From: Euglena gracilis
Lineage: Eukaryota
Direction: 5' to 3'
Assembly: GCA_039621445.1 (NCBI GenBank)
Contig: CP154954.1
Span: forward strand, 10,497,521 to 10,561,520
DNA: 64,000 nt
Under the pieces are notes generated by a model. It made no database searches. It was given only the letters and a program-made list of their open reading frames with translations, and was not told the origin of the DNA. This document shows, piece by piece, positions 23,701 through 53,718 of the stretch. Every line of letters begins with the position of its first letter. Position 1 is the stretch's first letter. A program made the position numbers and the translations under genes.

Positions 23701-26700
23701 GGATTTTGTTATTTTGGGGCCCTCGAACAGTTGGGCAACAAAAGGGATTTGCCCCCCAAAACGGGTGGGTAACACAAGGGATTTTGTTATTTTGGGGCCC
23801 TCGAACAGTTGGGCAACAAAAGGGATTTGCCCCCCAAATCAGTTGGGTTACACAAGGGATTTTGTTATTTTGGGGCCCTCGAACAGTTGGGCAACAAAAG
23901 GGATTTGCACCCCAGATCAGTTGGGTTACACAAGGGATTTGCCCCGCAAAATGGGTGGGTAACACAAGGGATTTTGATATTTTGGGGCCCTCGAACAGTT
24001 GGGCAACAAAAGGGATTTGCCCCGCAAAACGGGTGGGTAACACAAGGGATTGTGTTATTTTGGGGCCCTCGAACAGTTGGGCAACAAAAGGGATTTGCCC
24101 CGCAAAACGGGTGGGTAACACAAGGGATTTTGTTATTTTGGGGCCCTCGAACAGTTGGGCAACAAAAGGGATTTGCCCCCCAAAACAGGTGGGTAACACA
24201 AGGGATTTTGTTCTTTTGGGGCCCTCGAACAGTTGGGCAACAAAAGGGATTTGCCCGCCAAATCAGTTGGTTTACACAAGGGATTTGCCCCCCAAAACGG
24301 GTGGGTAACACAAGGGATTGTGTTATTTTGGGGCCCTAGAAAAGAAGTCAAACAAAAGGGATTTGCCCCGCAAAACGGTGTGGTAACACAAGGGATTTTG
24401 TTATTTTGGGGCCCTCGAACAGTTGGGCAACAAAAGGGATTTGCCCCCAAAACGGGTGGGTAACACAAGGGATTTTGTTATTTTGGGGCCCTCGAACAGT
24501 TGGGCAACAAAAGGGATTTGCCCCCCAAAACGGATGGGTAACACAAGGGATTTTGTTATTTTGGGGCCCTCGAACAGTTGGGCAACAAAAGGGATTTGCC
24601 CCACAAAACGGGTGGGTAACACAAGGGATTTTGTTATTTTGGGGCCCTCGAACAGTTGGGCAACAAAAGGGATTTGCCCCCCAAAACAGGTGGGTAACAC
24701 AAGGGATTTTGTTCTTTTGGGGCCCTCGAACAGTTGGGCAACAAAAGGGATTTGCCCCGCAAAACGGGTGGGTAACACAAGGGATTTTGTTATTTTGGGG
24801 CCCTCGAACAGTTGGGCAACAAAAGGGATTTGCCCCCCAAAACAGGTGGGTAACACAAGGGATTTTGTTCTTTTGGGGCCCTCGAACAGTTGGGCAACAA
24901 AAGGGATTTGCCCGCCAAATCAGTTGGTTTACACAAGGGATTTGCCCCCCAAAACGGGTGGGTAACACAAGGGATTGTGTTATTTTGGGGCCCTAGAAAA
25001 GAAGGGCAACAAAAGGGATTTGCCCCCCAAAACGGTGTGGGTAACACAAGGGATTTTGTTATTTTGGGGCCCTCGAACAGTTGGGCAACAAAAGGGATTT
25101 GCCCCCAAAACGGGTGGGTAACACAAGGGATTTTGTTATTTTGGGGCCCTCGAACAGTTGGGCAACAAAAGGGATTTGCCCCCCAAAACGGATGGGTAAC
25201 ACAAGGGATTTTGTTATTTTGGGGCCCTCGAACAGTTGGGCAACAAAAGGGATTTGCCCCACAAAACGGGTGGGTAACACAAGGGATTTTGTTATTTTGG
25301 GGCCCTCGAACAGTTGGGCAACAAAAGGGATTTGCCCCCCAAAACAGGTGGGTAACACAAGGGATTTTGTTCTTTTGGGGCCCTCGAACAGTTGGGCAAC
25401 AAAAGGGATTTGCCCCGCAAAACGGGTGGGTAACACAAGGGATTTTGTTATTTTGGGGCCCTCGAACAGTTGGGCAACAAAAGGGATTTGCCCCCCAAAA
25501 CAGGTGGGTAACACAAGGGATTTTGTTGCTTTGGGGCGAACAGTTCGGCAACAAAACGTATTTGCCCGCCAAATCAGTTGGTTAACACAAGGGATTTGCC
25601 CCCCAAAACGGGTGGGTAACACAAGGGATTGTGTTATTTTGGGGCCCTAGAAAAGAAGGGCAACAAAAGGGATTTGCCCCCCAAAACGGGTGGGTAACAC
25701 AAGGGATTTTGTCATTTTGGGGTCCTCGAACAGTTGGGCAACAAAAGGGATTTGCCCCCCAAAACGGGTGGGTAACAGAAGGGATTTTGTTATTTTGGGG
25801 CCCTCGAACAGTTGGGCAACAAAAGGGATTTGCCCCACAAAACGGGTGGGTAACACAAGGGAATTTGATATTTAGGGGCCCTCGAACAGTTGGGCAACAA
25901 AAGGGATTTGCCCCCCAAAACGGATGGGTAACACAAGGGATTTTGTTATTTTGGGGCCCTCGAACAGTTGGGCAACAAAAGGGATTTGCCCGCAAAACCG
26001 GGTGGGTAACACAAGGGATTGTGTTATTTTGGGGCCCTAGAAAAGAAGGGCAACAAAAGGGATTTGCCCCCAAAACGGGTGGGTAACACAAGGGATTTTG
26101 CTATTTTGGGGCCCTCGAACAGTTGGGCAACAAAAGGGATTTGCCGCCAAAGCGGGTGGGTAACACAAGGGATTTTGTTATTTTGGGGTCCTCGAACAGT
26201 TGGGCAACAAAAGGGATTTGCCCCCCAAAACGGGTGGGTAACACAAGGGATTTTGTTATTTTGGGGCCCTCGAACAGTTGGGCAACAAAAGGGATTTGCC
26301 CCACAAAACGGGTGGGTAACACAAGGGATTTTGTTATTTAGGGGCCCTCGAACAGTTGGGCAACAAAAGGGATTTGCCCCCAAAACGGTGGGTAACACAA
26401 GGGATTTTGTTATTTTGGGGCCCTCGAACAGTTGGGCAACAAAAGGGATTTGCCCCTCAAAACGGGTGGGTAACACAAGGGATTTTGTTATTTTGGGGCC
26501 CTCGAACAGTTGGGCAACAAAAGGGATTTGCCCCCCAAAACAGGTGGGTAACACAAGGGATTTTGTTATTTTGGGGCCCTCGAACAGTTGGGCAACAAAA
26601 GGGATTTGCCCGCCAAATCAGTTGGTTTACACAAGGGATTTGCCCCCCAAAACGGGTGGGTAACACAAGGGATTGTGTTATTTTGGGGCCCTAGAACAGA

Positions 26701-28930
26701 TGGGCAACAAAAGGGATTTGCACCCGAAAACAGTGTGGGTAACACAAGGGATTTTGTTATTTTGGGGCCCTCGAACAGTTGGGCAACAAAAGGGATTTGC
26801 CCCCAAAACGGGTGGGTAACACAAGGGATTTTGTTATTTTGGGGCCCTCGAACAGTTGGGCAACAAAAGGGATTTGCCCCCCAAAACGGGTGGGTAACAC
26901 AAGGGATTTTGTTATTTTGGGGCCCTCGAACAGTTGGGCAACAAAAGGGATTTGCCCCCCAAAACGGGTGGGTAACACAAGGGATTTTGTTATTTTGGGG
27001 CCCTCGAACAGTTGGGCAACAAAAGGGATTTGCCCCCCAAATCAGTTGGGTTACACAAGGGATTTTGTTATTTTGGGGCCCTCGAACAGTTGGGCAACAA
27101 AAGGGATTTGCCCCCCAAATCAGTTGGGTTACACAAGGGATTTGCCCCGCAAAATGGGTGGGTAACACAAGGGATTTTGTTATTTTGGGGCCCTCGAACA
27201 GTTGGGCAACAAAAGGGATTTGCCCCCCAAAACGGGTGGGTAACACAAGGGATTTTGTTATTTTGGGGCCCTCGAACAGTTGGGCAACAAAAGGGATTTG
27301 CCCCCCAAAACGGGTGGGTAACACAAGGGATTTTGTTATTTTGGGGCCCTCGAACAGTTGGGCAACAAAAGGGATTTGCCCCCCAAAACGGGTGGGTAAC
27401 ACAAGGGATTTTGTTATTTTGGGGCCCTCGAACAGTTGGGCAACAAAAGGGATTTGCCCCCCAAAACGGGTGGGTAACACAAGGGATTTTGTTATTTTGG
27501 GGCCCTCGAACAGTTGGGCAACAAAAGGGATTTGCCCCCCAAAACGGTGGGTAACACAAGGGATTTTGTTATTTTGGGGCCCTCGAACAGTTGGGCAACA
27601 AAAGGGATTTGCCCGCCAAATCAGTTGGGTTACACAAGGGATTTGCCCCCCAAAACGGGTGGGTAACACAAGGGATTTTGTTATTTTGGGGCCCTCGAAC
27701 AGTTGGGCAACAAAAGGGATTTGCCCCCCAAAACGGGTGGGTAACACAAGGGATTTTGTTATTTTGGGGCCCTCGAACAGTTGGGCAACAAAAGGGATTT
27801 GCCCCCCAAAACGGGTGGGTAACACAAGGGATTTTGTTATTTTGGGGCCCTCGAACAGTTGGGCAACAAAAGGGATTTGCCCCCCAAAACGGGTGGGTAA
27901 CACAAGGGATTTTGTTATTTTGGGGCCCTCGAACAGTTGGGCAACAAAAGGGATTTGCCCCCCAAAACGGGTGGGTAACACAAGGGATTTTGTTATTTTG
28001 GGGCCCTCGAACAGTTGGGCAACAAAAGGGATTTGCCCCCCCAAAACGGGTGGGTAACACAAGGGATTTTGTTATTTTGGGGCCCTCGAACAGTTGGGCA
28101 ACAAAAGGGATTTGCCCCCCAAAACGGGTGGGTAACACAAGGGATTTTGTTATTTTGGGGCCCTCGAACAGTTGGGCAACAAAAGGGATTTGCCCCCCAA
28201 AAGGGGTGGGTAACCCAAGGGATTTTGTTATTTTGGGGCCCTCGAACAGTTGGGCAAAAGGAATTTGCCCCCTGAAATCAGTTGGGTGGCACAAGGGATT
28301 TGCCCCCCAAAACGGGTGGATAACACAAGGGATTTTTTGTTATTTTGGGGCCCTCAAACAGTTGGGCAACAAAAGGGATTTGCCCCCCAAAACGGGTGGG
28401 TAACACAAGGGATGGTGTTATATTGGCAACAAAAGGGATTTGCCCCCCAAAACGGTTGGGTAACACAAGGGATTTTGTTATTTTGGGGCCCTCGAACAGT
28501 TGGGCAACAAAAGGGATTTGCCCCCCAAAACGGGTGGGTAACACAAGGGATTTTGTTATTTTGGGGCCCTCGAACAGTTGGGCAAAAGGGATTGCCCCCC
28601 AAAACGGGTGGGTAACACAAGGGATTTGTTATTTTGGGGCCCTCGAACAGTTGGGCAACAAAAGGGATTTGCCCCCCAAAACGGGTGGGTACACAAGGTA
28701 TTTTGTTATTTTGGGGCCCTCGAACAGTATTTGCCCCCCCAAATTTTTGGGGCCTCGAACGTTGGGCAACAAAGGGATTTGCCCCCCCAACAAACAGGGA
28801 TTTGCCCCCCAAAAACGGGTGGGTAACACAAGGGATTGTGTTATTTTGGGGGGCCCTCGAAAAGTTAAGGGCAACAAAAGGGATTTGCCCCCCCCAAACC
28901 CGGGTGGGTTCACAAGGGATTTTTGTTATT
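8737..28930. repeat. ~20-kb tandem satellite, 78-bp monomer with 112-bp variants and higher-order repeats
   Basis: Consensus GTTGGGCAACAAAAGGGATTTGCCCCCCAAAACGGGTGGGTAACACAAGGGATTTTGTTATTTTGGGGCCCTCGAACA; roughly 230 units (estimate); right end degenerate. Confidence 0.98.
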
Positions 28931-29382: not shown

Positions 29383-32300
29383 AACGGCGCAACCTGCTGG
29401 GGCAGCTGGAGCACGCCGCCTCCAACTCCAGCGCCCTCGTGCGGCAGCGGGAGGAGAACCACCACCTGCAGGCGTGCCCACAGTCCCCCATGGCCCTACG
29501 TCTGTTCCTGAAAAGTCAATTGTGCAATCACAAAGGTGCTGGTTGGACCTTTTTCTCTTGAGTTGAAACAGATATTTTTTGGAACTTTATTTATGAAAGT
29601 GAAAATTGAAATGCTATTCAAATTTTAAACATTTTCACATTTAATCATGATAATCAATGAATTTATCCAAGCATGAGGACGTAGAACCAACCTGCTCGAA
29701 CGCCTCAATGTTCGTCCTCCGTGTTTGCCTTTCAGGCACAGAAGCGACATCTGGAAGAAGCGAAAATCAGACTTGCACACGTTCAGCAAGCTGAATGGAT
29801 GCAGTGGAGTGTCTGCAGCTGGGTTTCTAACATCTTTGCAACCTTTCTTTTTTATGGCGCCAACCCATCTATCCTCTAAAATGGGGCGCTAAATGAATTT
29901 ATGAAGGGAATGATATTATTTCATCTTTTTTACACTCTGTTTTATTGAAAATTCTCTTTATTTTCTCATATTATATTATATTATATTCACATGTTATTCT
30001 CGTACACTTTTCCCCCATTCTCTTTCGCTGAAAAATGGCGCTCAGACACATGGGAAAATAGGTCATGCAATGATTTTCAGTAGATGTGGTTACAGAAATT
30101 GGAAAATGATAAATGAATGAATGTAAAGTATTTTCTGATCTCGGGGAGGCACCATCAGTTTCGCGCCGTTTTGGGTTTGGTTTAGTTGGGCAGATCGATG
30201 GGCAGGCGGGTCGACCCACGGGGGATGGGGGTTTTGGGTATTTTATTTGGTATTTTACTGCTCAGACTTTTTTCTTTCTTGTGTCACAATAAATTTTGGT
30301 TACATATCAGTGTGGGTATATGCTGTGTGTAAATTCCTGTGAACATTGTTTTTGTTTTGCTACCCTGCGCACGTGTGTTCGTGTGCGCGCATGCTTCCGC
30401 GTGGCAACATGCGCGCGCACACGTGTGTGAGTGTGCGTGTGTATTCCGTTTTTGCAATTCTCTTCTGCTTTTCCTCGTGTCTGCATGCAAGCCTGACACG
30501 GATCAAGTTGGAGTCTGAGGTGGGGACCGCCATGAGGGAACTGAAGGAAAAGGAAGCGGTGCTGCTGGAGGCCCGGCGGGCGGTGGACGAGAAAGGTGGG
30601 CCAGTTGTTTTTAATTGTTTTTAACTCATGATAATAATATTGATTCATAATTTAATTGTTTTAAAATCGTGATACTAATATTGATTCATAATTTAATTGT
30701 TTTTAAATCATGGTAATAATATTGGTTCTTAATTTAATTGTTTTTAATCATGGGGGGCAATGTTACATGTCATAAATTTCATTTGGCATTGCAACAAACG
30801 AAAGAAAGAAGCCCCCCAAAAAGCGACCAGGGTGCTTAGTCGTCAGTTACTTCCAGGCAGATCAGCGATTACACAGGTTGGAGGCAGGCCATATGGACAT
30901 GCAAGCGAGTTCGGAGGAAGGGGACATTTTTCATAGTTTGATTTTTTTTTTTGCCAAGAAGGGCTTTGGATTTCCTGCGTCAGCATTATCACCTCCTTTA
31001 ATTGATGCTTTGTTGCTGGAGGGGAACGGCGTTTGTTTTGCGAATCAATCTTTGCGTTGACATTCCCTGATTAATGGCAGCAAAAATCACAAACAAAGAC
31101 AACTCCAAAGTTATTGAAAAAGAGGAAGCAGGTGTGACACACAGCAAAGCCCCCCCCCCTGGACCCCAGGTGTGCTCGTCGTGCAGGAATCGGCGTTGGC
31201 CAAAGCTCAAACCGTTTGCGTTATATACACATACTATACACTCACATATACGGACTATATATAGTGTATTCTCTATCTCTCTATCGAATACATAATCCTC
31301 TACTAAATGCATCGTTACAACACCAACCACCAGCAGCGAACTATGAGCATTCCCCTACTCTTTGACCTTCCCTTGCAGGGATCGGCGTTGGCCAAAGCTC
31401 AAACCGTTTGCGGTTGCCGCAGTGCGGGAGATCGAAGCCAAGCAGCGCGACCTGCGGCAGTTCGAGGAGCGGACGGCGGAGCTGCAGCAGCAGATCGAGG
31501 CGCAGCAGCAGGAGAACGGCGAGCTGGAGGAGGAGTGGGCTGTGCCGCGACGTGTCAAAAGGGAGAAAGCAAAAAAAAACAGGAAGGCAATGGGGTTGCC
31601 ATCCTGTGCATTTTTGCTCAGTCAGACAACTGCAATAACTAGTGCGATCATTGTCTGTGCCGTCACACTGCTGTTTATTTTTTCTATGATAGTAAAAAAT
31701 AACAATAAATACTAATAAATTAATAACATCGTTGCATCGAGTGAACATCGTTGCATCGAGTGATTGTTCTTAACGTGTCAGTGTGTGTATGTTGTCCTTT
31801 TTTTGCATGTATCAGTGCACCACCTGCCCAAAATCCTCCCAATCGGCATCATTTTCCTCGTTCGGGCTTCTGGCTCATATTCCCAGGGATGCACGCCTCG
31901 GCCCCTCTCCACATTTCCAGTCTCGCCACGGCGTTTTTAAACGACCCCCCCGAGGGGTCCAGCTCAGCGGCTGGAAAATTGGCTGGTTGGAAATAATTTG
32001 CTGGCTGACCCCCTGGATAGGTTCCTGGACTGGAGCTGGGTCCGACCCGGACGGGTGAACTGGGTGCCAAAAAAAATAACCGAAAGCGCAAAAATGTCCA
32101 TAAAACTGCCAAGTATGCAGAAAAGTCGATTTTTGACCCCAAATTTGCCATGGCCAGCCCTTTTCCGACCCATTTTCGCCCATTTTTGGCCATTTTTTCA
32201 CCCCCGAAAGCGAAAGAATTCCGTTACCATCCAGCCGCACGAAGGGCGGCTGGAGATAAATCAAATTTGTTGGGGGGGGAGGGGGTCCCGGGCTGGAAAA

Positions 32301-33051
32301 AGGCTGCTGGCTGACTGGCTGGACCCCCACCCTGGGGGTGTGGTCAAATTGTTGTTAGCTACGCCCTGTTCTCAACAAGTTTAAAAAAATTATATTTGTA
32401 TGGTCGCACCAGCACGGGTGACTTCGCTTGGCCGCCTGGATGGATAGCCTTGGTGTCGCAGCCTGCCGGTGAGCTTCGGCACCTTTGTGGCGAGACGTTG
32501 GCCTTCCAGCGGTACTATGAACTGAAGAAGCAGAACCGCCATTTCAAGGTTTCTGTGCGAAGGAATTTCTGTTTTGAAAGGTTTTGCAAGCATGCATTTT
32601 TAAACCATTTTACAGTTTTTTTTAAAAAAAATCATGATCACTGCATTTCTCAAGCCGGAAGGGATGGTCCGGCCAGCAACCATTGCCAGCCGGCTGGCTG
32701 GACCACGGAGGTGCCTAAGAAATCCCTGTTCGTACTGAATTGATTGTTGAGGATTTCAGGTGATCCCAAGTGGTTGCTTCGATTTTTTGTCCCAGGCTTT
32801 TTGGGTAACCCTGATTGGGAAGGGGGGTCAGACAGCAGTTTTTCAGCCACGTTTTCCAACAGGGGGGTCGTATTGCGTGAATCACCATTATTGCTGTCTG
32901 GCACTCACAGACCATCCGCAAGGTGTTCGAGAAGGAGAAGCCCAGCGACTACAAACCCTGGATGCAGTATATGCCCTCAGAGCACACCGTGGAGCGCACC
33001 ATCAGCGCCATCCGCTCCAACTCCCAGACCAGGCTGAATTCAGGCGACTGA
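29383..33051 (+). CDS. Spliced coiled-coil protein gene, 3' part (5' exons not found)
   Basis: Exons 29383-29471, 29736-~29797, ~30489-30595, 31423-31532, 32471-32548, 32911-33051 (TGA) give ERRNLLGQLEHAASNSSALVRQREENHHLQ|AQKRHLEEAKIRLAHVQQAE..|SLTRIKLESEVGTAMRELKEKEAVLLEARRAVDEK|VREIEAKQRDLRQFEERTAELQQQIEAQQQENGELEE|ELRHLCGETLAFQRYYELKKQNRHFK|TIRKVFEKEKPSDYKPW...GD*. Phases agree across GC-AG 29472-29735, GT-AG 30596-31422 and GT-AG 32549-32910; the exon 2/3 junction is unresolved. Confidence 0.8.
30611..30752. repeat. 41-bp AT-rich minisatellite, ~3.5 copies, intronic
   Basis: TTAATTGTTTT unit starts at 30611, 30652, 30693 and 30734. Confidence 0.85.
31533..32470 (+). other. Euglenid-type nonconventional intron
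   Basis: gag|GAGTGGGCTGTG...CGCAGCCTGCCGGT|gag; +3..+12 pair with -5..-14 (3 G-U pairs); CTG at -8..-6; frame preserved. Confidence 0.7.
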
Positions 33052-33138: not shown

Positions 33139-38629
<5,491 letters not shown>

Positions 38630-38759: not shown

Positions 38760-40408
38760 ATGGGCGTTCAGTGGCCGCTCTGGGTTGCCTGCATGCTGTT
38801 GGCACTGGGGGTCCCGAGCAGCAGCGAGGAGGGCACGTGTGACGTCCCGCCGGGCTTGCACACCCAGTGGGGACGTTGTGCACCCGGATGAGGTTTCTTT
38901 TTAACTCACAAGACCCCCCCCTGCCGGGGGAGGGGTTGATTGGGTGGGTGCGTCCGGTGCCAGACCCCCTGGGGGGGGGGTCTCAGGCCAGAGCATGGTT
39001 TCGGTGCGAAGCACCAAAAATTGTGGAAAATGCCCTTAGGTGCGAGTTGGGTACGTCGGAGATCCCCCCCGCCCCCCCCCCCCAGGTCTTTAAAAAAAAA
39101 GGCCTGAGCTGAATATGAGTGTCCGAGGAAAGGTCCCCCGAGTGATTTCATCTTCATGTGAAACTCAAAGGCTGGTTAAACAATGCACACAAAATTCTCC
39201 GGTCGAATTGTTGTTTTGAAATGTTATTTCTCAGAAAAGAAAACAGTTTCCAGAGAAAATACGTTGCCCTCATTATGGTTTGATAAATCTTCCATTTTGG
39301 GAATGCCTTTCTATCTTGTGGGAGCCCTCACCGACCGTCAACTCTTCCGCGCCGATGAAGCCGTTCTTAGGCTGGCAGCTCACATGCACCTGGCCCAAGT
39401 TTGAGCAGACCCCTCAAAACGCTATGATTTTATGAGGCATGTTCCTGTATTTGCGAATTTGCCCACAATTCAGAAACAAAAGAACACATATGTAGTGGAG
39501 ACATAGCGACACATAGGGTCCACGCTCAGCAATGAACTTGCAGGCTGTCATGCACTTCATCCCGCAGTTTGGGTCACCGCGGAGAGACCTCCCAAAGGGG
39601 TCGCGCTCGGAGGCTGGGATTTGAGGTTGGGTGGGAAAACGGGGAACAAGTGCAGGCGGACAGGGGGGAATCGCTGGGTCGGCATGCCCAGGAGGTGGCT
39701 GGCCCTCAACGGCACCTCCCCGATGGTGACGCAGCAGCGTGTGTTGGCTGACGGCGTGGTGCTGGCCGGGCTTCCATTTGATTTGGAATGGTCGATAATG
39801 GGCATGGTCAGCGATTTTTCAACTTTTGTTGGGAATTTGTCTCAATTTTTTTAAAAAAATATCTGCATTCTGGCGCTGTCATTTCCAACACCTTTTGTCA
39901 AAATTGACGCTCTGGTCCAGGGCATTGCTCAAGGACTCGCCCAGAGGCTGGGGAATTTTGGCTGGCTGGAAAACGGCTGCTGGCTGACCCCACCCCCTCC
40001 CGAAACTCCCCCTGACCTGAGCGGGGGGGGGGGGGGCAACCCCTCGGGAGTCTCAAAGGGAAGCCTGGGGGTGGTGGAGTACGGGGACGCCTTTGTGAAC
40101 CAGAACGGCTGCTTCTACGGCACGCAGTGCCACGCCGCCGCCTGGCCCAGTCGTGGGCTCCGCCCATTCTGGAACGGGAGCGTGCGGAAGGGCTTTGAAA
40201 CCTTCGAAGGAACGAAAAATTGCTGTGTGATTCGTTTCTGCAGATGTGGTATTCATTGCAAATTGTTGTCATTTATTTGTTGTTTTTTGCCGCCTTGTAT
40301 TGTTTGTTATTTTTTGTTTGCTTGCTTGCTTGCTTTGTTGTTTGTTTACAAATATGCACTGATTTTCAAGTCTTATTTACAAATTCGCAATTGCTATTAT
40401 TGATGTTG

Positions 40409-40473
<65 letters not shown>

Positions 40474-43400
40474 TTCTCCTCCTCCTCCTCCTCCTCCTCC
40501 TCCTTCCTCTTCTTCTCCTTATGATTTTCCGTCACGCCCCGTTTTTTTTATTTTCAAAATTGCATCATTCGATTTGCATTGAGTGATTTGCATCGCTCAA
40601 ATTGCACCACTCTATGGGGAACCCACAACAACCTTCTCCACACTGTTTTGGGCCCCATCGGGTGTCTCCTGACGACGTGGCCACTGCCGTAGTCGACGCC
40701 CTCCCCCACCGCTGCGAAGACCCCTTCCAGCGGGGGACGTGCCCCCAGCCGACGGCTGTGCAGCCGCTGCCCCGGCGCTGGTACCACCAGAAGTCCGACC
40801 AGGGCGGGGGAGGGGGAAGTGGTGGGGGGTCACACCCGGTCCAGCCAACCTGATGCCACCCCCTCCTGGTCAGGGGGTCAAGCACATCGCCAAAGAATGT
40901 GCATGGGCACCCAATCCAGGCACTTCGACGCCGGGAGCACAGAAAAGGACCACTTTTGACCTGATTTGGCCGGTGTTTGCTCATTCCCCGGGGTGGGGGG
41001 TTGTGCAGGTGGGCTGCCTGCGCAGGCACAGGGCTCTGGGGATGCTGCCCTGGGGGGAGGGTTCAGGGGGGACACTTCCACCCCGCGTGCACCGCGTGAA
41101 AAAAAATCATCACCGGTGCGCCTTTTTTTAAGCCGTAGTTTCAATAGATTGGTGTGCCCCCCCCCCGAAGATTAATATGACCCAAAATGCGGTGCACGCA
41201 GGGCAGAAGCTGTGCTGTTGTCTCTTGGGTGCACACGGTGCGGAAGGGTCCAGCCTGTACTACCCCACCCCCTTTCCCCCGATATCCACACGTGCGGCAG
41301 CCCCAGCCCTGGCCCCACCCCGTTCCTCCTCGTGGGCTACCACCACCCCTCGTTCTACCACTTCGTGTTCGAGATCCTGAGCTGCTTCCTCGTCTTCCTG
41401 GAGCAGGGGCTGACAGCCGGGACCCCGCCGGTCACGCCGGTCACAGTGTGAGCAGGGTGGCGTGGCTGACCACAGCCTCAGCTGCGTCGCTGGCTCCGTT
41501 CGTATCGTCCTGAACCGCCACCCAGCGCTCTGGCGATCAGGGGTTTTCTTAAGCTGGAGGGTACCAAGTCTGGGGGGGGGGTCCAGCCAGCCAGCACCTC
41601 CCAGCCGGGCTGTGAAATAAAGTTGGGTCCTGCCCAGCGAAGCGGGACTGGACCGAAAAATTTTTGGCGCAAAGCGCCAAAAATTTTTGGAAAATGTTGT
41701 TCAAAATCAAAAATGGTCAAAAATGGCGTTTTGGGTGTTTTTGGGGGTGGTTTTTTTCTCTGCGGGACCCTGGGGGGGGTCCTTAAGAAAACCCCTGCTG
41801 GTGATGGAATGGATGTGGGAGTTGTAATGATTTTCGAATCGCTGGTGTGTGGGTATTCGTATGTATTTGTGGCTTCGCATTTGACAATATTTGTGGTTTT
41901 TGTATCGCAACATCACAGGAAGTTTCCTGCCAGCCCAAAGTTCTTTTTAGCACCTTAGCCAGACCCCCCAGGTCACAAAGCAATGCCCTGCTCGAGACCA
42001 ACATCTCGAGCTGGCCACTAATTTCACACCAATCTAGCTGAACACAAAGAAAATCTCCCTCTTCCTGTCCCCAGACAAGGATTATGATTTGCAAATTTGA
42101 AAATGGGGTCTCGTGGTGGACAGACACTGCTTGGATGGGTTGGACATGTCAACACTCTCCCCAGGCCAGCTAGGGTTGTTTTTCTTCATGGAATGCCCTT
42201 CCGCGAGATGGAACAGCGGGGGTCAGCCAGCACCCTGGGCGCGACTTTTCCGCTCCCAAGCCGAGCTCGCACCCAGGCCATCGCGTGCCGACCGTGTCAA
42301 GACCCACCGGAAACGAGGTCTTCGGGGCAAAGCATACTCTTTTGTTAAGTGATAGCATTAGGGATGTGTTTGAGTGCAGTACTGATATAAATTTAACATA
42401 GTTACTCGAAATCATAATTTTAGGCACCGACATTTGAAGTTTTTTGTGAGATATTTTTTTGCCCAAAGCCGAGACTGAGTTTGTTTATTACCAGGTTCAT
42501 AAGCTTGTTGCAAACCCCTTTCCTTGCTTGGATGAAACTGGTATCATTCGACAACTCCCTCCAGGGGACCTGGAGGCCTGTGGGAGTGTGGTGGCAGTTC
42601 TTGAAGTTGCCCCCGGTAGTGGACAAGATGAGTTACAGCAAGGTGTACACTGCCACTGCCCAGGCGGCAACTGTGGTACAACTGCCGTTGGCAAGGCTGG
42701 ACAGGCCAGAAGTCCTATGTGTGGGATGAGTCACCCCTCACACCCCCCTCACCCCTACTGACTGACCATCAAACTTGAATGCCTTGCCCAGTCAACCATT
42801 CATGATGCAGTGCCCATTCAAGATTTCAAGATTTCTGTGGTGAAGAGGACCACCCTCCTGGGAAACTGTCCTACAACTGCCCGTGCTCGCTTATTTGTAC
42901 TCATCGACCTGTCTCCTCCCTCTGTTCTGGTGATTTGGCTGAAGACTCCAGCGACAAATCCCGGACTAATCTCAAAAATACCCCAACAGCACCAAAAATT
43001 CTTGCAAAAAGAAATGACACAAGGTAGACAAAAATTACGATTTGGAGAATTTTTGTCTGCCCTGTGTGGTCGGCCAGTGGTTTGTGCAACGCTTTTCAAC
43101 CTTTTCTCTTTGCTTTTCTTTTGGTGAAGAGGTTGTTTTGGAAATGAGAGCTGTTCATTTGTTGGAATTGAAAAAAAATTAATGCCGGCCAGTATGTTAT
43201 ATGAGAGCGTTTATCGTCAGCAAAGTATATGAGTTTTTTTTTTTGTGATGTGATTTTCGTTTTTTTTGCATCTGCATATGTTTCAGATATTTTTTTGGGA
43301 AATTTGCTGGGATGCCCCCCATAAAATGGCTGAAAATGCCAAAATGGCATGAAAATGGTTACAATAGCCCCTCAAAGAATGACTGCAAATTACAAAAATT

Positions 43401-46400
43401 GCAAAATTGCGACAAACAGCCCAGAGATGCTAAACATTGGCCAAAACTGGTCGGAATTGCCCTGGGATTTCCGAACGTTGCCCAAAACAAAAGAAAAGGC
43501 TACGCAACCTCAATTCTTTATTTCCCCATTTCCAGATGCATTTGCCGATATCTTGCACAACCAAGAATTATTTTCACTCCATATTTTGGCCTTTTTTGGA
43601 GAAAAATGTGGGGCTGTGTTCTGCTCACAGGTTGCAATAGCCCAATGTCAACCCTCTCTCTAATTCGTTGATTTTTTGCAGCTCATGAGCCCATGAGTCC
43701 CAATCAGGCTTTTGCTTAAAGGATTGCAGTACCCCCCCGGGGGGGGGGGCTGGGCTGCAGCTAGCCCAAATTTTGGCCAGTGGGAATTCCAGCAGACCCC
43801 CCCGGGGGGTCTGCTGGCAGGGCTAGCTAGTGGAATTTTTTTTTTCCAGTGACGGGCGCGAAGCGCCGGAAATTTTTTTTGGACCCCCCAAAATGGCCCA
43901 AAATGCCCGTTTTTTGGCCAGTTTTGGGAATTTTTGGAACAAAATCAGCCAAAAACCTCTTGAAAACCTCATTTCCACCTTGGCGCAGCGCTGGAGGAAA
44001 AATTTTCCAGTGGGGGGGACCCCGGACCCTCCCCCAGGGGGAGTCCTAGCTAGTCCATTTTTTCCAGTGTCTGATTGGCTAGCCAGTACCCCCCCCGGGG
44101 TCCTTAAGCAAAAGCCTGGTCCCAATGCCAGATAAAAAGGTTCTGGTTCGATGAATTATCAATCCCACAAATTACCATATGGTGGACCAGACGTTTTTTG
44201 TTTTAGATCAAATCCCTGCAAATGATGCGACCAGAGCCCCACCTCCAGCGTTCAAAGTCAAAGTCCGCCAAATCCCGACTAATCCTGACAAATCCCAACC
44301 ACAGCACCAACAATCCCAAGTGTCTGGAGGTGCTTGGTCTGGAGACAGTTTCTCGGTTTGAGAATCGGAAATTTGAGTCGAAAGTCGCTCCCTGGCTGCC
44401 GGAGCTCTCGCCACGCACTGCCCACCGAACCCGGGGTGGGCCTCGCCCCAAATGCAAGCGCTGCGCCGCCGGGTGGCTAAAGTGCAGCCTCGCACAAGGA
44501 TCGAACGCCGGTCGGGGAGCATTCGAACAAACCCCCGAGGGTGGGACACCCAAAACGAGCCACCACCATGAAGGCATTTTCCAAAAAAGACATTCTGGGG
44601 GGGGCACTCCGATTGAGAGATCGCCTCAAACGGCACAAACTTCAGGAAGCACAATGACTGACAACCCTCCGTACTGCTGCGTGCGAACTGACAAAATGAA
44701 AATGAAACGGTCCGATATGGCGGTCGTGGGCCCAACCTTCGCCGGGGACCCCTCCGGTGGGCCTTGAAGAAGCCTGATTGCACACCATACTGACCCAGTC
44801 ACCCACAACCCCCCCCCCCGTCCCCCCCCCCCCCCCCCCCCCAGTCCCCCCACAACTCACCCCCCACCCCCAGCCTTCCACCCCCCCCCCCCCAGCATTC
44901 CCACCTCCCGCCCAGCCGCCCCAACCCCCCCCCCCCCCCCCGCGGTGGTGGGTGACTTTTTTTTTAGAGTGACCGACTGGTTTTGAGCCCCTCACCCATG
45001 GCAAATAACCACCAAAGTCACGAGCACCGGAAAATTATTTCCAGAGTGGCCGACCCATACCATTGCTTAAAGTGTGTCCAACCCCCCCGGAGGGAGGTGA
45101 TTGACGTGGAGCATGTGCCTGGCACAGGCAATTACTTAAGCACTGACCGACCCCCCCCCCTGGGGGGTGGGTGACTGGTTTTTTCAGAGTGACTGACTGG
45201 TTTTTGGCCCGGACCCCCCCCCCCCCGGGGGGGGGGGGGGAGTCGGCCAGGAGTGGGCAAAACTGGCTTGAGTAACCCCAAAACTTTTTGGGGCCTAAAA
45301 TGGCCTAAAGTGACTGGAAAGTGGCCGTTTTTCTGAGTGGCCAACCCCCCCGGGGTACGGGGTACGGGGGGGGGGGGGGTAGTGACTGGCTGGTTTTTTG
45401 AAAATGAGTGACTGACTGGTTTTTTTTAAAAAAAAAGTGGAGTGACCCACCCCTCCCCCCCGGGGGGGTCGGTAAAAAATTGTATGGCCTGGCGGACGCT
45501 TGGTGGCCAGGAATGGCTGAAAGTTGCCAGCTGATTTTTTGGATTTTTGGTCAAAATCCCTTGCTTTTTGGCCATTTTTGGCCGAGTGGCCAAAGTGACT
45601 GACTCCCCCCCCCCGGGGTGGTTGGAAGTGTGTGACTTGTTTTTGAAAAGTGACTGACTATATTTTTGACAGTGGATAAGTGGGGGGTCGGGGGGGGGGG
45701 GGTCGGTAAAAAATGGTACGGCGCACACGCCCTCCCCGAGCCTTTCCGTTCCTTTCCTTTCCTTCCTTGGCGAACAACCCCGTGGCGGAGGGCCCGGCGG
45801 GGGCATCGCGGTCCTGCGGCGGGCGGGGCGCCGGGCGGTGGCCAACCACCGGGCCATGCCCTCGCCGGCCTTGGACCGCCGGGGGGCACCGCCGGACTGG
45901 GTTAGCCCTTCCACAACACCGCGTTTGGTTGCGTGGGGAGACAGGAGGGAGTTGAGGCTGGTCTGTACCCGGGGGGGGAGGAGATATGCAAGTAGCACAA
46001 CTGGCATTTGCATTTGCATAATCCAAATCTTGAAGTTTTGCATTTTTTTGCATATTTTGCATTTCTTTTGCACAATTAAAAAATTGTGAAAAATTGCATT
46101 CTTTTTTTTTGCATATTTTGACTTTCCGACTCTTTCGGAGCATTTGTGTGGACAAATTTTTCTATTTTCAGGTAACTGGAAGCTGTATACCCCACGTTTT
46201 TGGACCAATTTCACATTTAATGATGAAGTGGATGCAACGAGGAACCAACCATTTCACTTTGCAAGTTTGCACCACATTTTCTTTTGGTGTTGCATTTTAG
46301 GGCAGGTGAAATTTTTCTAAGTGCTTTCCAGCAGAAAAGTGCAGAGCCCCGGGGAGCTCCTAAAGGATTGACATGCAATTTACAATTTTTTTTGCATTTT

Positions 46401-49400
46401 TTGACGCTTTTTTTTTTGCTGATTTTGGGCTCAAAATATTTTCGGCCCAGCCCTTTGTGCCGGGCCAAAAATCAGACCAAACCTCCTAAAGTTGTCTTCC
46501 GACCAGGGGTGGTCGTTGGACATTAAGGGGTCGTTGGACATTGGAGGGTCGTGGATATTGTAGGGAGGTATTGACCAGGGGGGTGCAATAACACAGGGGG
46601 TCAGGAAGTGAAACACAGGCAAAACAAAAACTGATTTTGGTAAGGGGTCTGATCCCCCCAAATAGTTCATTTTACTGGATGGATGCAGGTTGCGACCCCC
46701 CAACCCCTGCGGGTCCACCAGTTTAGGGATGGGTTCATCAATTTTGAATTTGGGGGGGGGGCTGTCTTAAAAAAACAATCCCTGCACCAGAAGTGTGTTT
46801 GCTTGATTGTGAATCATCATCCCAAGAAGACACTTCTGCGGGGAAAACATTCCTCATCGTGCATCTTTGAACCCTGGGGGGGTCAGGCTGGGCCAAACAG
46901 TTTAACCCCCCACCTGATTTATATCGAGACCTGTGTTAGGGTCATGATGAAGCCGAAATTTAGGTCGATATTTGGGTCTCTAACTTAGACCGAATTTTTG
47001 GCCGACAGCCAAACTTCAGCCTCCTTAACACTATCCTGTTTTTTTTATTATTGAAAGCGGCTCCCTGTCCCTATTTCTCAAAATAACAGATTTTCCAAAC
47101 AATGGCAAATCCCCCCTCCTCCCCGCACACTTAATGTCCTGCCTTAGGCCTAAGGGACGGCTCTGGGGATTAAACGGGGCCAAATAAAGTCGAAAAACAC
47201 ATTTTTTTGCCATTTTTGTTGGACGATGCTGAAACATCGCCTTTTTTGGACCATTTTCATTGTGGATTTTCATTGAATGTGCTGGGATGGGAATATTTAT
47301 TTTTTCGGTTAAGGGCTGCCCCGACTGTGCCTGAAAGGCATTGCCCTCTGTGTTCCTTGATTTGGCTGGGGTAGTTTGTATTATTCTTTCAATATTTTTG
47401 GTTTCCCGACATTTTTAACGTAAATTTTGTCTCATTTCATTTCATTTGTTTGTGAATTTTTTCCGTACATTTTTTGATTCCCCCAGTTTTGCAGCGATAT
47501 CTGTTTGCATTTACCCCCTGTATTTTTCGAGTTTCCGAGTATTTTCGCATGCAGCAGAATTGGTGTGAATAGCACAGCAGATGCGTCTGACGACGCATTG
47601 CGAGGTGAGGTCTGTGTGCAAGGGGAAAAGAAACCATTAAATAGAGAGAAAATACCGAAAGACAAGCGCCTGGAACTGGGTACGAAGCATGGTCCATGCC
47701 GCATAATGCACACAAGCAGCAGCTAGTCATCGACTGAGTAGTTTGTTTTTTAATTCGGGCCCCGAGGGAAGCAAACGATTGCGGCGCGCCAATTGGAGAT
47801 CCCGATGGAGTAGCAACCAATTGGGTTATGTCCCACTGGAGGTGTTAGTTAGGGCCCCCCCCTCCCATCCCACTCTCAATTCTTTCTTTTCGGTGTGGAT
47901 GCCCATGGGTCCACCCATAGATCCTGTCATTTAAACGGAGGTTGGCGAGACCCAATGCACCGGCTTCAGAAGGACTTCCCAAACGTGACAGTGCGAGACT
48001 TGTTCCTTGAAAAGCTGCCAATCGGGATCTCGCTGTTTGCATTAGCACACTTGCATTTGTAATGTGCCAGTTTTAGTTTAATAAATCAGTGCCAAGAGTT
48101 TTCTGAATCTTTCTGGATTGGTAAATAAATATTTCAATCGGTTTGTACCACCAATTTTGAAATGATTGGCACTGGCCCTGAAATGCCATATTTAAGCATC
48201 GGCATCATTGAACCTAAACCAAATCCCCTCCCTTGTCTGGTGGTCATCAACTGCCGAGCACAAGGCAAACGCGGACGAAATATAAGTTTTGATAACTACC
48301 TTCCCCCCATGTGTAATGAAACCCCTTGTTGAATGAGCAGGTGATTTCAATGCTGGACGTTATGTTTGTGGTGTTAATAATAATGATGAGGGTTATCAAG
48401 TGAACTCCCAATTATACAGACCTCCCGAAAATGTATGTCCCCCCAACTAAATATCAGCCTGCATATTTGACCCCCCCTGAATTGACTTTCCCACATGTAT
48501 TTAAACCCCCACCCCCCGACATAAGCAAGGGTGCGATTCAGGGCAAAGTAGGTAAATATTTTGGGAGGATGGTACAATTTTTCACAAGAAATGAAAATAT
48601 ATTTGGGCATGAGGTACACGGGGGCCTCTGCACATTTTCATTTCCTCCAACTGTAATCAAACACCAACCAACGTTTTATTTAAGCTTTAATTTTTTTTGA
48701 GCATCTCCTCCTGATTTCCTAAAATGATGTTTCCCCCCCTGAAATAGATAATTTCTTCCATCCATGCTTTGCCCTAGAATAGCATCCCAAAGGGGCTGTA
48801 AACTGTGGCATGCTCATACTCAAATGGTGGAATTTGATTGTCTAAAAACCAGGGTGCGGGCTTCACATTTGGGACTTTAAGTTCGTCATTAACTTAGCAG
48901 ATTAGCCCACCCAAGTACAAAGTCCGCCTGGCTTTGTATTTGGGCAGGATTTCAAGACCTTTGGGGTCAGGCTTCTGCTCAAGGATCCTCAGTACCTTCC
49001 CCCCCCCCCACAGGGTGGACTGCAGCTAGTCAAATTTGGCTAGTAAATCCTAGTGGACCACCCATAGGGGTCCGCTTGCAGGGCCAGCTAGTGGATTTTT
49101 TCCCCCAGTTACCGGCGCGAATCGCTGGAGACCCTAAAGCCTGCCAAAAAAATGCCCATTTTTGGATTTTTTTTGCTACTTTTTTGGAATAAAATCAGCA
49201 AAGGAAACACAGTACTAACCTCATTTCCACTCAACGCGGAGGAATTTTTTTTCTGCTTGAGGGGACCCTGCATCCCCCCTGGGATGGGGGGTCCCAGCTA
49301 ATAGCCAGCGTGTCTTCAGCATTGCGAAACAGAAAACCTGTCTTTGATTCGGAAGACAGAAAATACTTTCAGGCCTGAGTCGGAAAACGAATTGGTTAAT

Positions 49401-52400
49401 TGATAAACCAGACAGTCTGTCATCTCCTCCGGATTTGTGTCACAACAATGTTTCACATCTTTGCCAGCTTGCCAGGTGCATTTCGCCAAAAATGTGACCA
49501 CAGAGCATTTTTTGCTTCTTGGCGCATTTTTTGCATGATGTAACCAAAAATTTCGCATTTTTTTCGACCATCTTTGCAATTTTTTTTAGCATTTTTTTGC
49601 ACATTTTTGCATTTTTTTTGAAACTGACATTTTCCATATGATTTGCATTTTCATGATTTTGAGATCTTTTTGAGCGCCAAGGAATTGTTCCGGGGCCCCG
49701 CACCCCGCTGCCGGAGGCGCTGGCCCACCTCGCCGCGGCGGAGGTCATCGTCAGCCCGCACGGCGCCCAGCTGAGCCACATCGCACTGCTGGAGCACCCC
49801 AACGTGCTGGAGCTGCTCCCGGAGAGCTGGGCCGCGGGCACCAACCGCAGAGGGGGCAGCTGGGCGCCGTCCCCGGCCCGAAGTGTGCGGTGGGGCAGGT
49901 CAGTGTCATTCAGTGATGCTCTTGGATCCCAATGTCTTGCTGGTTCTCTGTGTTGCTCTGTGTTGCAGGGCAGATGATCGCTGCAATTTTTGACGGTTTT
50001 CTGCAATTGTACGCAAATTGCTTCAAAGACAAGGACAGAAATCCCCCTTGGAAGTGCGGTGTTGGAGGGTTGCATGGTGACGGGTAGCCTTGTGCCTGGG
50101 AGGCGGGGGCTGGGTGAGATTGGATGAACTTCTGGGCTGCAATCTGGCACAGGTGGGCGAGTGGTTTTGGCGGCAACCAACCTGAAGAATTGAAGGGCTT
50201 GAGTGAGACTGGGGGAACAAAGACCTGCAAACAGCGAAAAACTAAAAAAAAATGGCGAAAAATGACCAGAAATCCAGTCCAAAATGACGTATTTTTCTCT
50301 GTTTAAATCCTTTCCCAGCAAAAACCGAAATCGGCATGGAAAAGAAATGCAAAAAAAAAACAGGGAGGAGAAAATTCATTTCACGTTTTTTTGTATTTTT
50401 GCGCATTCTTTTGCACATTTTTTTCAAATTTTCCAACAATGAGCAGTTTTGCGGATGTTTGCGCAGTCGTCGCACATTTTTCTTTTTTTTTTTGGAGCAT
50501 TTTTTGCTTCCTGGTACATTTTTTTTCGTGATTTAGCCAAGATTCTCGCATTTTTTGACCATTTTTTTTGCAAGTTTTTCATTTTTTTCCCAATTTTGGA
50601 TTTTTTTTTTGAAACTGACATTTTCCACATGATTTTCATTTTCGTGATTTTTGTGCTTTTTCTCTCAGATTTTGCATATTTCTGTGCATTTTCCCCCCAT
50701 TCATTTTCTCAAATGTATGGGCTGTTTTTGAAGCTCAAAAAATTTTCCCCCTGCCCACCAGGTTTTCCACGAATCTACACCCCTCCCCGTGATAAAGGTG
50801 GTCCAGAGCTGCCCTTCTTCTGCTCATTTCCTCTCACTCAATACCATGCCCATGGGGCATCCTCCGCAGGCTCTCGCCCCATTCCCCCAACTGTTCCCCT
50901 TCCTCTTCCTTTCCTGTCCCTCCCAGCTGGTCCACTGTCTCTCCGTTTTTGTTGCATCCTGATTGTGTCTCTGCCGCGGCAGTCGGCTGCGCCCTCAGTT
51001 CCAGAAGCTGGCGTGCAACTACGTCGCCCTGGTGGTCCGCGGGGCGGGCTACGCCGATGCGATGGCGCCTGCGCCGGGGGCTTTTCGGGGGGTTGAGCGG
51101 CAAGCCTGCCCGCAGCAACTGCCCGTTCAGAAAGTGACATTCTTTTTCCGAGATGAAGGAGGGTCCGAAGGTGTCCAAAACGGCGCAGTAGCACGATTCA
51201 GATCGCGATTTCCGCAAATCTGAAAAAAAAATTGCGGGGAATGCGACGGAAATCGTGGTTTTCAAGGTTTCGATCGCAATTTCTGCAATTCTGGAAAAAA
51301 ATTCACAGGAAATGCGACGGAAATTCACGATTCCGATCGCGATTTACGCATTTCAGATCAAGATTCCCGCAAATCTGAAAAAATTTCGTGGGAAATGCCA
51401 CAGAAATTGTGGTTTTCCGAGCCGTCGTAGTTGGTCATCGGAAATTCAGGCAGTCCTCCAAAATGCAAGCCAACGGCTGACGGCGGTGCAAGAGGCTCTC
51501 GTCTCCCAAGGAGTCAGGCTTCTGTGGAATGTCACCCGTGACGGAGGCTGCACAATAGCAACCAGCGAGGTGTTTTGTTTGAGGAGTTTTTTTTGTCCAT
51601 TTGGGCCAGAAACAATCACTTATGTGCAAAGTGCTTTATGTGCAAAGAACACCCCCCTAAAGACCATCCCCTTTTTTGAAGGTTATGTCTTGCGGCTGCC
51701 AACTTTCCCTGGCATTTTCAGCCTAGGAACCCAGAACTGCACATAAAACTGTCCACAAGAAGGCAGTTGTCGCCAACCAGGCATTGTTTTAAGGCGAAAT
51801 TCGCAAAAAAAATCCAAGGTTATTCATGGCGTTTTTTTTAGTTTTTTTTTAATAAAAAAGTTTATTGAGGCATTTTGAAAATTTGAAGATTTTTTAAGTG
51901 TCCATTTTCCATTGGCGGTCAAAGAGCCATCTGTTCATCGAACCAGCGTCGATCCAAGTTGAAAACCAAACCCATGTTTTTTGGTGGATAGACAATGCCA
52001 GAAATCATTTTCCCCGAGTTTTTTGCCAAGATTTTTTGCGACTTCAATTCGAGTTTATTTCCAGGACCAATAAATTATTTAGGTTTTTTAAGGTTTTATA
52101 AAGGCTTTTTTTAAGGCCTTTTGTTTTTTTTAAGTTGTTTTTTTTCCAGGATTTTTAAGGTGCTTTAAAAAAAATTCTGCCAGCGGCAGGAAGGGAGGGG
52201 TTCTTGAGCCAAATAAGGTCTTTGAAGCTTGCAATATTTGATGCTGAAAGCAGGAACGATGCCTTGCCATATTTGATTCAACTGTCTTCCGGTCTGACCA
52301 AACCTTGTGCACTTTCTCAATTTGCTGGCGTTTCCAAATTCTCAAAAAATAACAAATTCCGTCTCTTTTATGTGGGGACGTGTTCAATGTGTGATTTATC

Positions 52401-52630
52401 AGGGTTTGAAGATGATTGCACGGCGATGGAAGTCAATAATGGACAAATGTTTGCAGGGGCTGGAGGAGGGGGGGCGGTTTCTGTCGTACTGTTCTGTTTC
52501 TGTCGGACTGGTGCAGCCTCATTTGCAACCACACTGCAATGCGGCAGTGCCTTGTACAATTGCGCTGGATGACAAACAACGGCACGCAATGATTTCTCGC
52601 CACCACGGCTACGCAGCAAACACCAAGTGA
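38760..52630 (+). CDS. Spliced secreted glycosyltransferase family 61 (DUF563)-like gene
   Basis: Signal-peptide exon 38760-~38885 (MGVQWPLWVACMLLALGVPS); exons ~39566-39763, 40073-40175, 40650-40796, 41317-~41400 (HPSFYHFVFEIL), ~45770-45850 (IAVLRRAGRRAVANH), ~49685-49848 (AAAEVIVSPHGAQLSHIALLEHPNVLELLP), ~50999-51056, ~51433-51569, 52517-52630 (TGA). The YH, R..R..N and HGA.L...VLE.P motifs occur in GT61 order; exons at 41.9-47.9 kb are unresolved. Confidence 0.8.
39764..40072 (+). other. Euglenid-type nonconventional intron with MITE-like TIRs
   Basis: ct|GGCCGGGCTTCCATTTGA...TCAAAGGGAAGCCTGGGGGT|gg; Y|R at both ends; joins GVVL-VEYGDAF in frame. Confidence 0.8.
40176..40649 (+). other. 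Nonconventional intron containing a (CAT)n-(CCT)n microsatellite
   Basis: aac|GGGAGCGTGCGGAAGG...CCTTCTCCACACTGTTTT|ggg; 11 of 13 pairs in +n/-(n+2) register; joins PFWN-GPHRV. Confidence 0.6.
40408..40520. repeat. (CAT)n then (CCT)n microsatellite
   Basis: Directly visible. Confidence 0.9.
40797..41316 (+). other. Euglenid-type nonconventional intron
   Basis: tcc|GACCAGGGCGGGGG...CCCCAGCCCTGGCCCC|acc; CAG at +4..6, CTG at -8..-6; 11 of 12 pairs; joins WYHQKS-TPFLLVG. Confidence 0.8.
41538..41797. mobile_element. hAT-type MITE (intronic)
   Basis: 16-bp perfect TIR CAGGGGTTTTCTTAAG; TSD CTGGCGAT/CTGGTGAT (7 of 8). Confidence 0.9.
43705..44118. mobile_element. hAT-type MITE (intronic)
   Basis: 15-bp TIR CAGGCTTTTGCTTAA; perfect 8-bp TSD GTCCCAAT; a decayed relative lies at ~48968-49320. 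Confidence 0.93.
44930..45720. repeat. Cluster of G/C-run-rich repeats with a recurring GTGACTG(ACT)GGTTTT motif, probably MITE-derived
   Basis: Motif at ~44968, 45171, 45188, 45382, 45407 and 45650; ends and TSD not defined. Confidence 0.5.
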
Positions 52631-53157: not shown

Positions 53158-53718
53158 TAACGAGTTTGAAGCGCATCCGAGTTTCACTCCGAAAGCCGAG
53201 GGGCGGAAGGCCTCATTCAATGCGCACCCCTCGGGTATCGACCCCTCTGATGCCCCGGGGGCCAGTAGATCTGCGGTTCCAAATGGTGCTGCACCCCGCC
53301 GGTGAAGCGAGCGTGCTGCAGTGCCGCAACCCCCCAAATATCGAAACGCTAATTGCGCAGAAGTTGGCGCAGCCCACTTCACGCGCCTTTTTCAGCCCAC
53401 AGAAAGAGGAAAGTGGGCAATTACCCACCCGACAAGATCACGACCATTCAGGCTCCGCACTTCGAGATGGTGAGGTCCTGCTTTCCTTGCCGGCTGCTCT
53501 TTTCTGGTGTGTTTGTGCGTGCGCGGGGGGTGCTTCTTACTGCGTTTTGTTGCCGGAGTTGGCTGATTCCTAATTCTGCCCTTCGACCACAAGGAAGAAG
53601 AATTTCAACTCAACGAGTTCAACAACGTTCAGCATAGCATCCAATCAATACAGAGGAGGAAGAGCAATTCAGACGATAACGAAAAGCGCAGGAAGAAAAA
53701 ATTTGATTTCCATGAAAG

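Follow-up and report, generated by a model that had tools for sequence, protein, structure and literature searches.

Background

Nonconventional introns account for 71.8% of the introns of Euglena agilis (Nomura et al. 2025, PMC12501133). They are the closest described counterparts of the element treated here, a 309-nt intron of a glycosyltransferase gene at positions 39764-40072 of a 64,000-nt stretch of Euglena gracilis DNA (the window, from whose first letter all positions are counted). In such introns CAG follows the first 3 nt, CTG is located at -8 counted from the 3' terminus, and the genetically defined code is 5'-N3CDG-/-CH'GN5-6|R (PMC12501133). According to the knock-in experiments of the same study, the 5' spacer tolerates neither +1 nor -1, and for the 3' spacer 5 nt are preferred and 6 tolerated. 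CGG-CTG introns also splice, as do wholly synthetic 50-bp introns with the code features alone (PMC12501133).

As for the origin of these introns, descent from MITEs (transposable elements of the miniature inverted-repeat type) was proposed in 2014, in a paper according to which no transposable elements had been identified in euglenids (PMC3935182). A 2024 review describes CAG/CTG at +4-6/-8-6 as terminal inverted repeats (TIRs) and the junction repeats as resembling target-site duplications (TSDs); the word 'hAT' is absent from its accessible part (PMC11282704). The idea is restated in PMC12501133 and in a diplonemid paper. A MITE origin with junction repeats as TSDs is already published, in line with the statement of the initial annotation that a transposon origin had been discussed before. 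The accessible texts of PMC3935182 and PMC11282704 name no superfamily or TSD length, whereas here real elements are presented whose 8-bp TSDs correspond in length to the 3+5 spacers; the treatment of inverted repeats as TIRs and of junction repeats as TSD-like is common to both. No link of Euglena introns to hAT, to 8-bp TSDs or to named free MITE families was found in full-text searches of the accessible literature. Intron 4 of gapC, recently gained and present in only one E. agilis strain, has eight-nucleotide direct repeats at its junctions, which its authors view as a trace of break repair (Milanowski et al. 2016, PMC4770533).

Outside euglenids, the nearest parallel is provided by introners (Huff, Zilberman & Roy 2016, cited via PMC11170887 and PMC11282704), non-autonomous DNA transposons that form introns of unrelated genes in many near-identical copies and are removed from the transcript with one TSD copy, so that exon insertion is tolerated through removal, as in the model proposed below. 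Introners, however, use the spliceosome, and their TSD gives the splice site, whereas in that model the machinery would be a separate, stem-dependent one with cut offsets summing to the TSD length.

In comparison with the euglenid nonconventional introns described so far (Tessier 1995; Milanowski 2014, 2016; PMC12501133), the intron at 39764 departs in nothing: its borders are not GT-AG, it has a stem at its ends, C(A/G)G follows the first 3 nt and CTG precedes the last 5, the next exon starts with a purine, and a short direct repeat makes the border slidable. What it adds is MITE sequence in its interior and neighbouring free MITEs with matching ends. Descent from a hAT-like MITE that inserted into an exon is the best-supported reading of these data, and we consider it slightly favoured overall.

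The intron and its host gene

Judging from the protein matches given below, the window is nuclear Euglena DNA, and the intron lies in a GT61-type glycosyltransferase gene. A tblastn search of the window with EG_transcript_12729 (P0001; EukProt, E. gracilis, 395 aa) yields 15 colinear exon blocks on the + strand, spanning 38760-52589, with identity mostly between 82 and 100%; the block 49699-49932 has 67% because the alignment extends beyond the exon. This protein contains Glyco_transf_61 (PF04577; E 3.2e-13 in a Pfam scan, in agreement with a precomputed Pfam match), is the sole protein found with the 43-residue translation of 40050-40178, and was itself the sole match when its relatives were sought. 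The relevant part of the gene has the following structure.

39331-39402, + strand: exon of the GT61 gene, 72 nt
39708-39763, + strand: exon 3, 56 nt, ...NGTSPMVTQQRVLADGVVL; length consistent with the 192-nt gap in the X17 contig
39764-40072, + strand: nonconventional intron of the CGG-CTG class, 309 nt; based on the transcript-derived protein, the contig gap length and the fit to the code
40073-40136, + strand: exon 4, 64 nt, VEYGDAFVNQNGCFYGTQCHAA; end of the X15 contig piece 31 nt past 40106
40137-40685, + strand: next intron, 549 nt, slidable by 4 (GCCG)

The sequence 39764-40072 is a real nonconventional intron of this gene, typical of its class. Peptide LADGVVLVEYGDAF of EG_transcript_12729 is reproduced with 0 mismatches solely by the removal of 309 nt. 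Because TGG is present at both borders, the intron is slidable by 3 nt, which gives four equivalent placements, from 39763-40071 through 39766-40074 (exon ends 39762-39765, exon starts 40072-40075). All four yield the peptide, and the borders in the initial annotation represent one of them. The contigs agree with the protein: in X17 contig record 11, exactly 192 nt stand between the piece that reaches to 38846 and the one that begins at 40686, which equals the 72-, 56- and 64-nt exons with the 309-nt intron removed. A 315-nt intron arising via the GTGGTG repeat was rejected, as it predicts ...GVVEYG... and a 186-nt gap versus GVVLVEYG and the 192 nt seen.

For placement 39764-40072 the layout is GGC-CGG...CTG-GGGGT|G. 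The 3-nt spacer GGC precedes CGG (C-D-G), CTG is followed by the 5-nt spacer GGGGT, the middle pair between the two motifs is G-U, and the exon after the intron starts with a purine, the G at 40073. The intron thus fits N3-CDG/CH'G-N5|R, and GT..AG borders occur in none of its four placements.

To the segment 34800-46000 two raw RNA-seq runs and two contig runs (presumed RNA) were mapped. The joints listed (15 of 163) define nine introns in this segment; as listed, none is GT-AG and two have a GT start. With these nine, 18 introns were placed in the window, the rest, including the one at 39764, being taken from contig pieces and/or the protein. There is no intron at 40176, where the initial annotation had put one: the end of exon 4 is given by the X15 contig piece that covers 40106 and stops at 40136, and the next intron is therefore 40137-40685.

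Elsewhere in the gene, the RNA runs join 42657>44401 (...YTATGAL...), versus ...YTAAGAL... in EG_transcript_12729 (window 42654-42657 / 44398-44401); either the alleles differ here, or a second junction lies 3 nt away. Long C and G runs at 39064-39083, 44809-44941 and 45150-45240 draw very many RNA reads and produce spurious joints, e.g., 39083>44809 and 44842>39064.

Terminal stem and flanking 8-mers

The ends of the intron and its immediate surroundings contain the following elements.

39759-39766, + strand: left flank 8-mer, putative TSD copy 1, GTGCTGGC; last 3 nt intronic
39767-39781, + strand: 5' stem arm, putative 5' TIR, CGGGCTTCCATTTGA
40053-40067, + strand: 3' stem arm, putative 3' TIR, reverse complement CAGGCTTCCCTTTGA
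40068-40075, + strand: right flank 8-mer, putative TSD copy 2, GGGGTGGT; first 5 nt intronic

The imperfect stem noted earlier is present: 39766-39781 and 40053-40068 form a 16-nt inverted repeat with 14 of 16 positions complementary and arms 271 nt apart, the best of 16 pairs reported in 39600-40250. A duplex of the arms only has -24.9 kcal/mol, and the TIR pairs of the four free MITEs described below range from -18.4 to -31.6. The flank identity of 5/8 (GTGCTGGC vs GGGGTGGT) was likewise reproduced. Three mismatches in 8 unconstrained spacer positions are what is expected of an old insertion, and equally so without any duplication.

MITE sequence in the intron and free MITEs in the window

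According to blastn against the window, the intron matches 32291-32315 (25 nt, 96%, E 8.7e-6), 31962-32012 (E 3e-5) and, in the free MITE at 33306, the subterminal part on the 3' side. The similarity is clearest in one internal segment.

39918-40000, + strand: internal terminus of the 33306 MITE type, with a TIR-like start and subterminal GGCTGCTGGCTGAC at 39975-39988

The first 15 nt from 39918 match the TIR of the 33306 MITE at 12 positions and are followed by the family block GGCTGG...AAAA.GGCTGCTGGCTG. With at most 2 mismatches, GGCTGCTGGCTGAC, the family motif that had been seen in the intron, occurs 7 times in comparison with 0.16 expected: three copies lie in the 33306 MITE, and the others at 32302, at 35172, within the present intron (39975) and in intron 41451-42242 at its 3' end.

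The free elements were sought by scanning all CAG...CTG pairs 60-3000 nt apart with TIR >=11/14, which gave 121 pairs, 7 of them with flanks >=5/8. Among these 7, three are clear MITEs, as initially proposed (TSDs 8/8, 7/8 and 8/8), one is weaker, and three are taken as chance or unrelated.

33306-33809, + strand: free MITE, TIR 14/14, TSD CACCCAAC 8/8
34911-35069, + strand: small MITE-like element, TIR 12/14, flanks 6/8, within an intron of the upstream gene
41538-41797, + strand: free MITE, TIR 14/14, TSD 7/8, within intron 41451-42242 (joint 41450>42243)
43705-44118, + strand: free MITE, TIR 14/14, TSD GTCCCAAT 8/8, within intron 42658-44400

The TIRs of the three clear MITEs are perfect over the first 14 nt, which were scored, and continue to 16 nt; the elements are 260-504 bp long, and inspection by eye showed coding capacity in none of them. 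Strong TIRs go together with matching flanks, since in 29.5-64 kb flanks >=7/8 are found for 3 of 101 pairs with TIR >=11/14 and for 25 of 37875 pairs with weaker TIRs. Four X15 RNA-run contigs diverge exactly after 41797, as expected of the end of a repeat family. The published splicing code is satisfied by all four free MITEs with their flanks on the + strand and by two of the four on the - strand.

With respect to these elements, the end of the intron is most similar to the 34911 element, whose exact 3' terminus (35055-35069) matches the 3' arm at 12/15, the best match. The resemblance to the 43705 TIR asserted in the initial annotation comes to just 10/15, and separate free MITE families match one another at 8-13/15. 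The weight of the 12/15 match lies in the position of 35055-35069 at the terminus of an element, not in the match count. A separate 150-bp MITE at 39918-40067 was rejected, having own flanks of 1/8 and own TIRs of 6/15, and for this reason the element is better delimited by the outer TIR pair. The intron is read here as a degenerate composite MITE, the outer TIR pair of which would be the splicing stem. An Rfam scan of 30000-53000 gave no family at gathering score.

In the sense (+) orientation, five 8-mers, i.e., the TSDs of 33306, 34911, 41538 and 43705 and the left flank at 39759, agree in having position 5 occupied by a pyrimidine and position 6 by a purine. This 5|6 pattern coincides with the pyrimidine|purine rule of nonconventional-intron junctions, and two of the TSDs share CCCAA, in a sample too small to judge.

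Superfamily of the MITEs

In the hAT superfamily, TSDs measure 8 bp and TIRs 5-27 bp; Mar, a hAT MITE of Drosophila, begins with CAG(G/A)GG (PMC3517528). The free MITEs of the window fit this description, being similar to Mar in the 8-bp TSD, in short TIRs starting with CAG(G), in the lack of coding sequence and in a length of a few hundred bp, and from this we infer that they belong to hAT. They differ from Mar-type MITEs in that their TSD pattern comes from 3-4 copies and that no autonomous hAT with TIRs matching theirs was found in the window. Transposase sequence of the expected type is represented by one fragment.

7449-7634, - strand: degraded hAT-like (DUF659-type) transposase fragment, found by tblastn, within the open reading frame (ORF) 7323-7736(-)

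A second, non-colinear piece was found by tblastn at 8051-8158 (-). An exhaustive HMMER search with ORF 7323-7736(-) returns 25 relatives at E <=1e-3; among 10 relatives scanned, 5 have DUF659 above the Pfam cut-off, and one additionally has Dimer_Tnp_hAT, therefore hAT-type transposase remnants exist in the genome. A language-model atlas puts the ORF next to ZBED1_RNase-like and DUF659 clusters (0.93), which we take as a lead only. A word-indexed search for longer relatives of the ORF gave no match. Two results speak against the hAT assignment: Pfam run directly on the ORF and its neighbours gave no match, and no TIR common to the hAT-like fragment and these MITEs was found in the window.

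The MITEs and the intron might instead come from another superfamily with 8-bp duplications, P or Merlin, which would leave the rest of the model unchanged. In addition to the missing autonomous hAT partner, this is suggested by the Merlin families with 8-bp TSDs described in E. gracilis (PMC8101967). Merlin TIRs, however, end in 5'-GG, versus CAG here, as in Mar (PMC8101967, PMC3517528). The transposase remnant of the window is, moreover, of the hAT-like, DUF659 type. The Ac-type pattern nTnnnnAn fits two of the three intact TSDs. Altogether, we regard a source outside hAT as unlikely.

Beside the transposase fragment, the palindromic motif CAGGCGCA...TGCGCCTG has four copies, at 5238, 5302, 6628 and 6827. 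The outer pair of copies forms 50-nt inverted repeats 1426 nt apart, with flanks of 2/8 for 5302/6827 and no 8-bp repeat; the repeats at 5238-6827 perhaps delimit a longer element of the CAGG type.

Origin of the intron

In the proposed model, a hAT-like MITE, now degenerate and composite, would have inserted into the exon, and its TIRs would be the 15-16-nt inverted repeat through which the intron ends are predicted to pair. The nonconventional machinery would then cut 3 nt before the 5' CGG and 5 nt after the 3' CTG and join the exons. The RNA removed would comprise the element and one copy of its 8-bp TSD, the original reading frame would be restored, and a pre-insertion or intron-less site would be expected to carry the single 8-mer GTGCTGGT. 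More generally, any CAG...CTG element that has an 8-bp TSD and meets the code would, after exon insertion, be removed with 8 flanking nucleotides, so that the pre-insertion mRNA is restored. Nonconventional introns are reportedly excised as full-length circular RNA, a result that citing papers attribute to Guminska 2021.

The initial annotation had proposed this origin from a hAT MITE together with the relation 3+5=8. Its observable parts stand, namely MITE sequence in the intron, free MITEs fitting the code and hAT remnants; the exon insertion, the generality of the rule and the hAT identity of the element are inferred.

A number of results weigh against such an origin. The RNA mapping that had been suggested for fixing the junctions does not have the target joint among the joints listed (15 of 163), and the borders thus rest on the protein and the 192-nt contig gap, which agree with each other. 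The terminal stem is absent from the unconstrained minimum free energy fold (pair probability about 0.005, z -1.04), and forcing it costs 3.5 kcal/mol. As for the flanks, 8-mers 301 nt apart in 29.5-64 kb have a mean identity of 2.0 and reach >=5/8 with an empirical chance of 0.033, a value uncorrected for the choice of this site. Sequences of 15 nt that differ from the intron TIR at no more than 3 positions are about as frequent as expected by chance (4 vs 3.28). The left 150 nt of the intron match no MITE, nor anything else, in the window according to blastn, and the clearest MITE homology, at 39918-40000, is internal, away from the intron border. None of the four free MITEs is itself an intron, and at least three are located inside introns, which implies that MITEs land in pre-existing introns.

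Most of these points are also what an old, ordinary nonconventional intron would show. In that case the stem would have been kept by splicing selection, the MITE sequence would be a later insertion or fragment, and the likeness to CAGG-type ends would reflect a shared need. The internal position of the best homology, the left half lacking a MITE match, the chance-level TIR count and the marginal 5/8 identity all favour this explanation, as does the presence of MITEs in introns of the same gene (41538, 43705) and of the upstream gene (34911). On the other hand, the 3' arm ends base for base at the would-be MITE terminus and has its 12/15 match at the exact terminus of 34911; the poor flanks and TIRs of the mini-element 39918-40067 leave the outer pair as the better boundary; and 8-nt repeats have been published for a newly gained intron (PMC4770533). 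We therefore find an old intron with later MITE sequence rather doubtful, and a MITE inserted in the exon the better account.

Whether the 3+5 geometry holds beyond this intron was considered for the 18 introns placed in the window, with spacers and flanks measured from the C-D-G anchor in preference to an automated stem finder, whose spacer sums are blurred when a fortuitous additional pair lengthens the stem. The strict code is met by 7 of the 18. Only 4 have the strict 3+5 geometry (N5) and 3 have 3+6 (N6), and the latter, 3 of the 7 code-fitting introns, are incompatible with removal of an element plus 8 nt unless a later indel occurred. The flank identities of the 7 code-fitting introns are 3, 2, 5, 3, 1, 1 and 3 of 8, with a mean of 2.6 versus 2.0 by chance. 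Mean junction slidability of the 18 introns is 1.39, in comparison with 0.91 in re-paired controls (permutation p 0.068). These values, too, count against the model or fail to favour it.

They are compatible with the agreement between 3+5 and an 8-bp TSD being a coincidence, the border repeats then being products of double-strand-break repair or of constraints that splicing imposes (pyrimidine|purine at each of the two junctions). The N6 introns of the window, the tolerance for 6 nt in the 3' spacer and the lack of a flank signal across the code-fitting introns would all be consistent with this, and break repair is how the authors of PMC4770533 read their 8-nt repeats. Against it, the 5' spacer is fixed at 3 nt, 5 nt is the preferred length of the 3' spacer, and free CAG...CTG elements with exact 8-bp TSDs in the same genome satisfy the code. 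We consider coincidence quite improbable. The reading of 3+5 as 8 agrees with the published spacer experiments and with the 8-nt repeats of E. agilis gapC, and the evidence for it here is weak.

Taken to its full extent, the proposed model makes nonconventional splicing an RNA-level excision matched to one class of DNA transposons, with cuts of 3+5 corresponding to the 8-bp hAT-type stagger. We put this forward tentatively, with less confidence than the MITE descent of the single intron at 39764. The general model of scarless excision is coherent, newly testable and unproven by these data.

Other introns and features of the window

The 549-nt intron 40137-40685 has a TGGCC.../...GGCCA stem in place of CAG/CTG, with spacers of 6+2 = 8 and flanks identical at 5/8; it falls outside the published strict code. 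In the 792-nt intron 41451-42242, which has spacers of 2+5, CAGGGTG is followed by the MITE subterminal motif (G)CTGGCTGACC at both ends, and the 41538 MITE is nested within it. Intronic microsatellites are represented by (TAT), about 98 copies at 34414-34704, and by (TCA)21(CTC)11 at 40409-40509.

Farther away, 8900-28730 is occupied by a tandem array of great length, with a repeat unit close to 78 nt, higher-order periods of 138/156 nt, a constant GC skew near 0.18 and open frames of a repeated peptide. At 53574-58800 there is a retroelement with a 1195-aa ORF, in which a YLDD reverse-transcriptase-like motif was recognised by eye. Its downstream ORF has a weak Phage_integrase match (E 1.3e-4, below the cut-off), and 69-nt perfect inverted repeats are located at 57645-57713/58020-58088. 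The element looks like a DIRS-type tyrosine-recombinase retrotransposon.

Implications

The literature (e.g., PMC11282704) treats as unsolved both the origin of nonconventional introns and the reason why their spacers measure 3 nt and 5 nt. Should the two spacers together make up an 8-bp TSD, their lengths would have a straightforward evolutionary cause, and the MITE hypothesis would have actual elements as candidates. The junction rule of pyrimidine|purine would then represent two copies of TSD positions 5|6. Under the RNA-level excision reading, the removal of any such MITE from exon sequence would leave no scar, free MITEs in transcripts would still be spliced today, and most nonconventional introns, which form about 72% of E. 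agilis introns, would stem from these elements. The model would be directly testable by the published E. gracilis knock-in assay. If it is true, a non-spliceosomal case would join the transposon-made introns of algae, dinoflagellates and tunicates.

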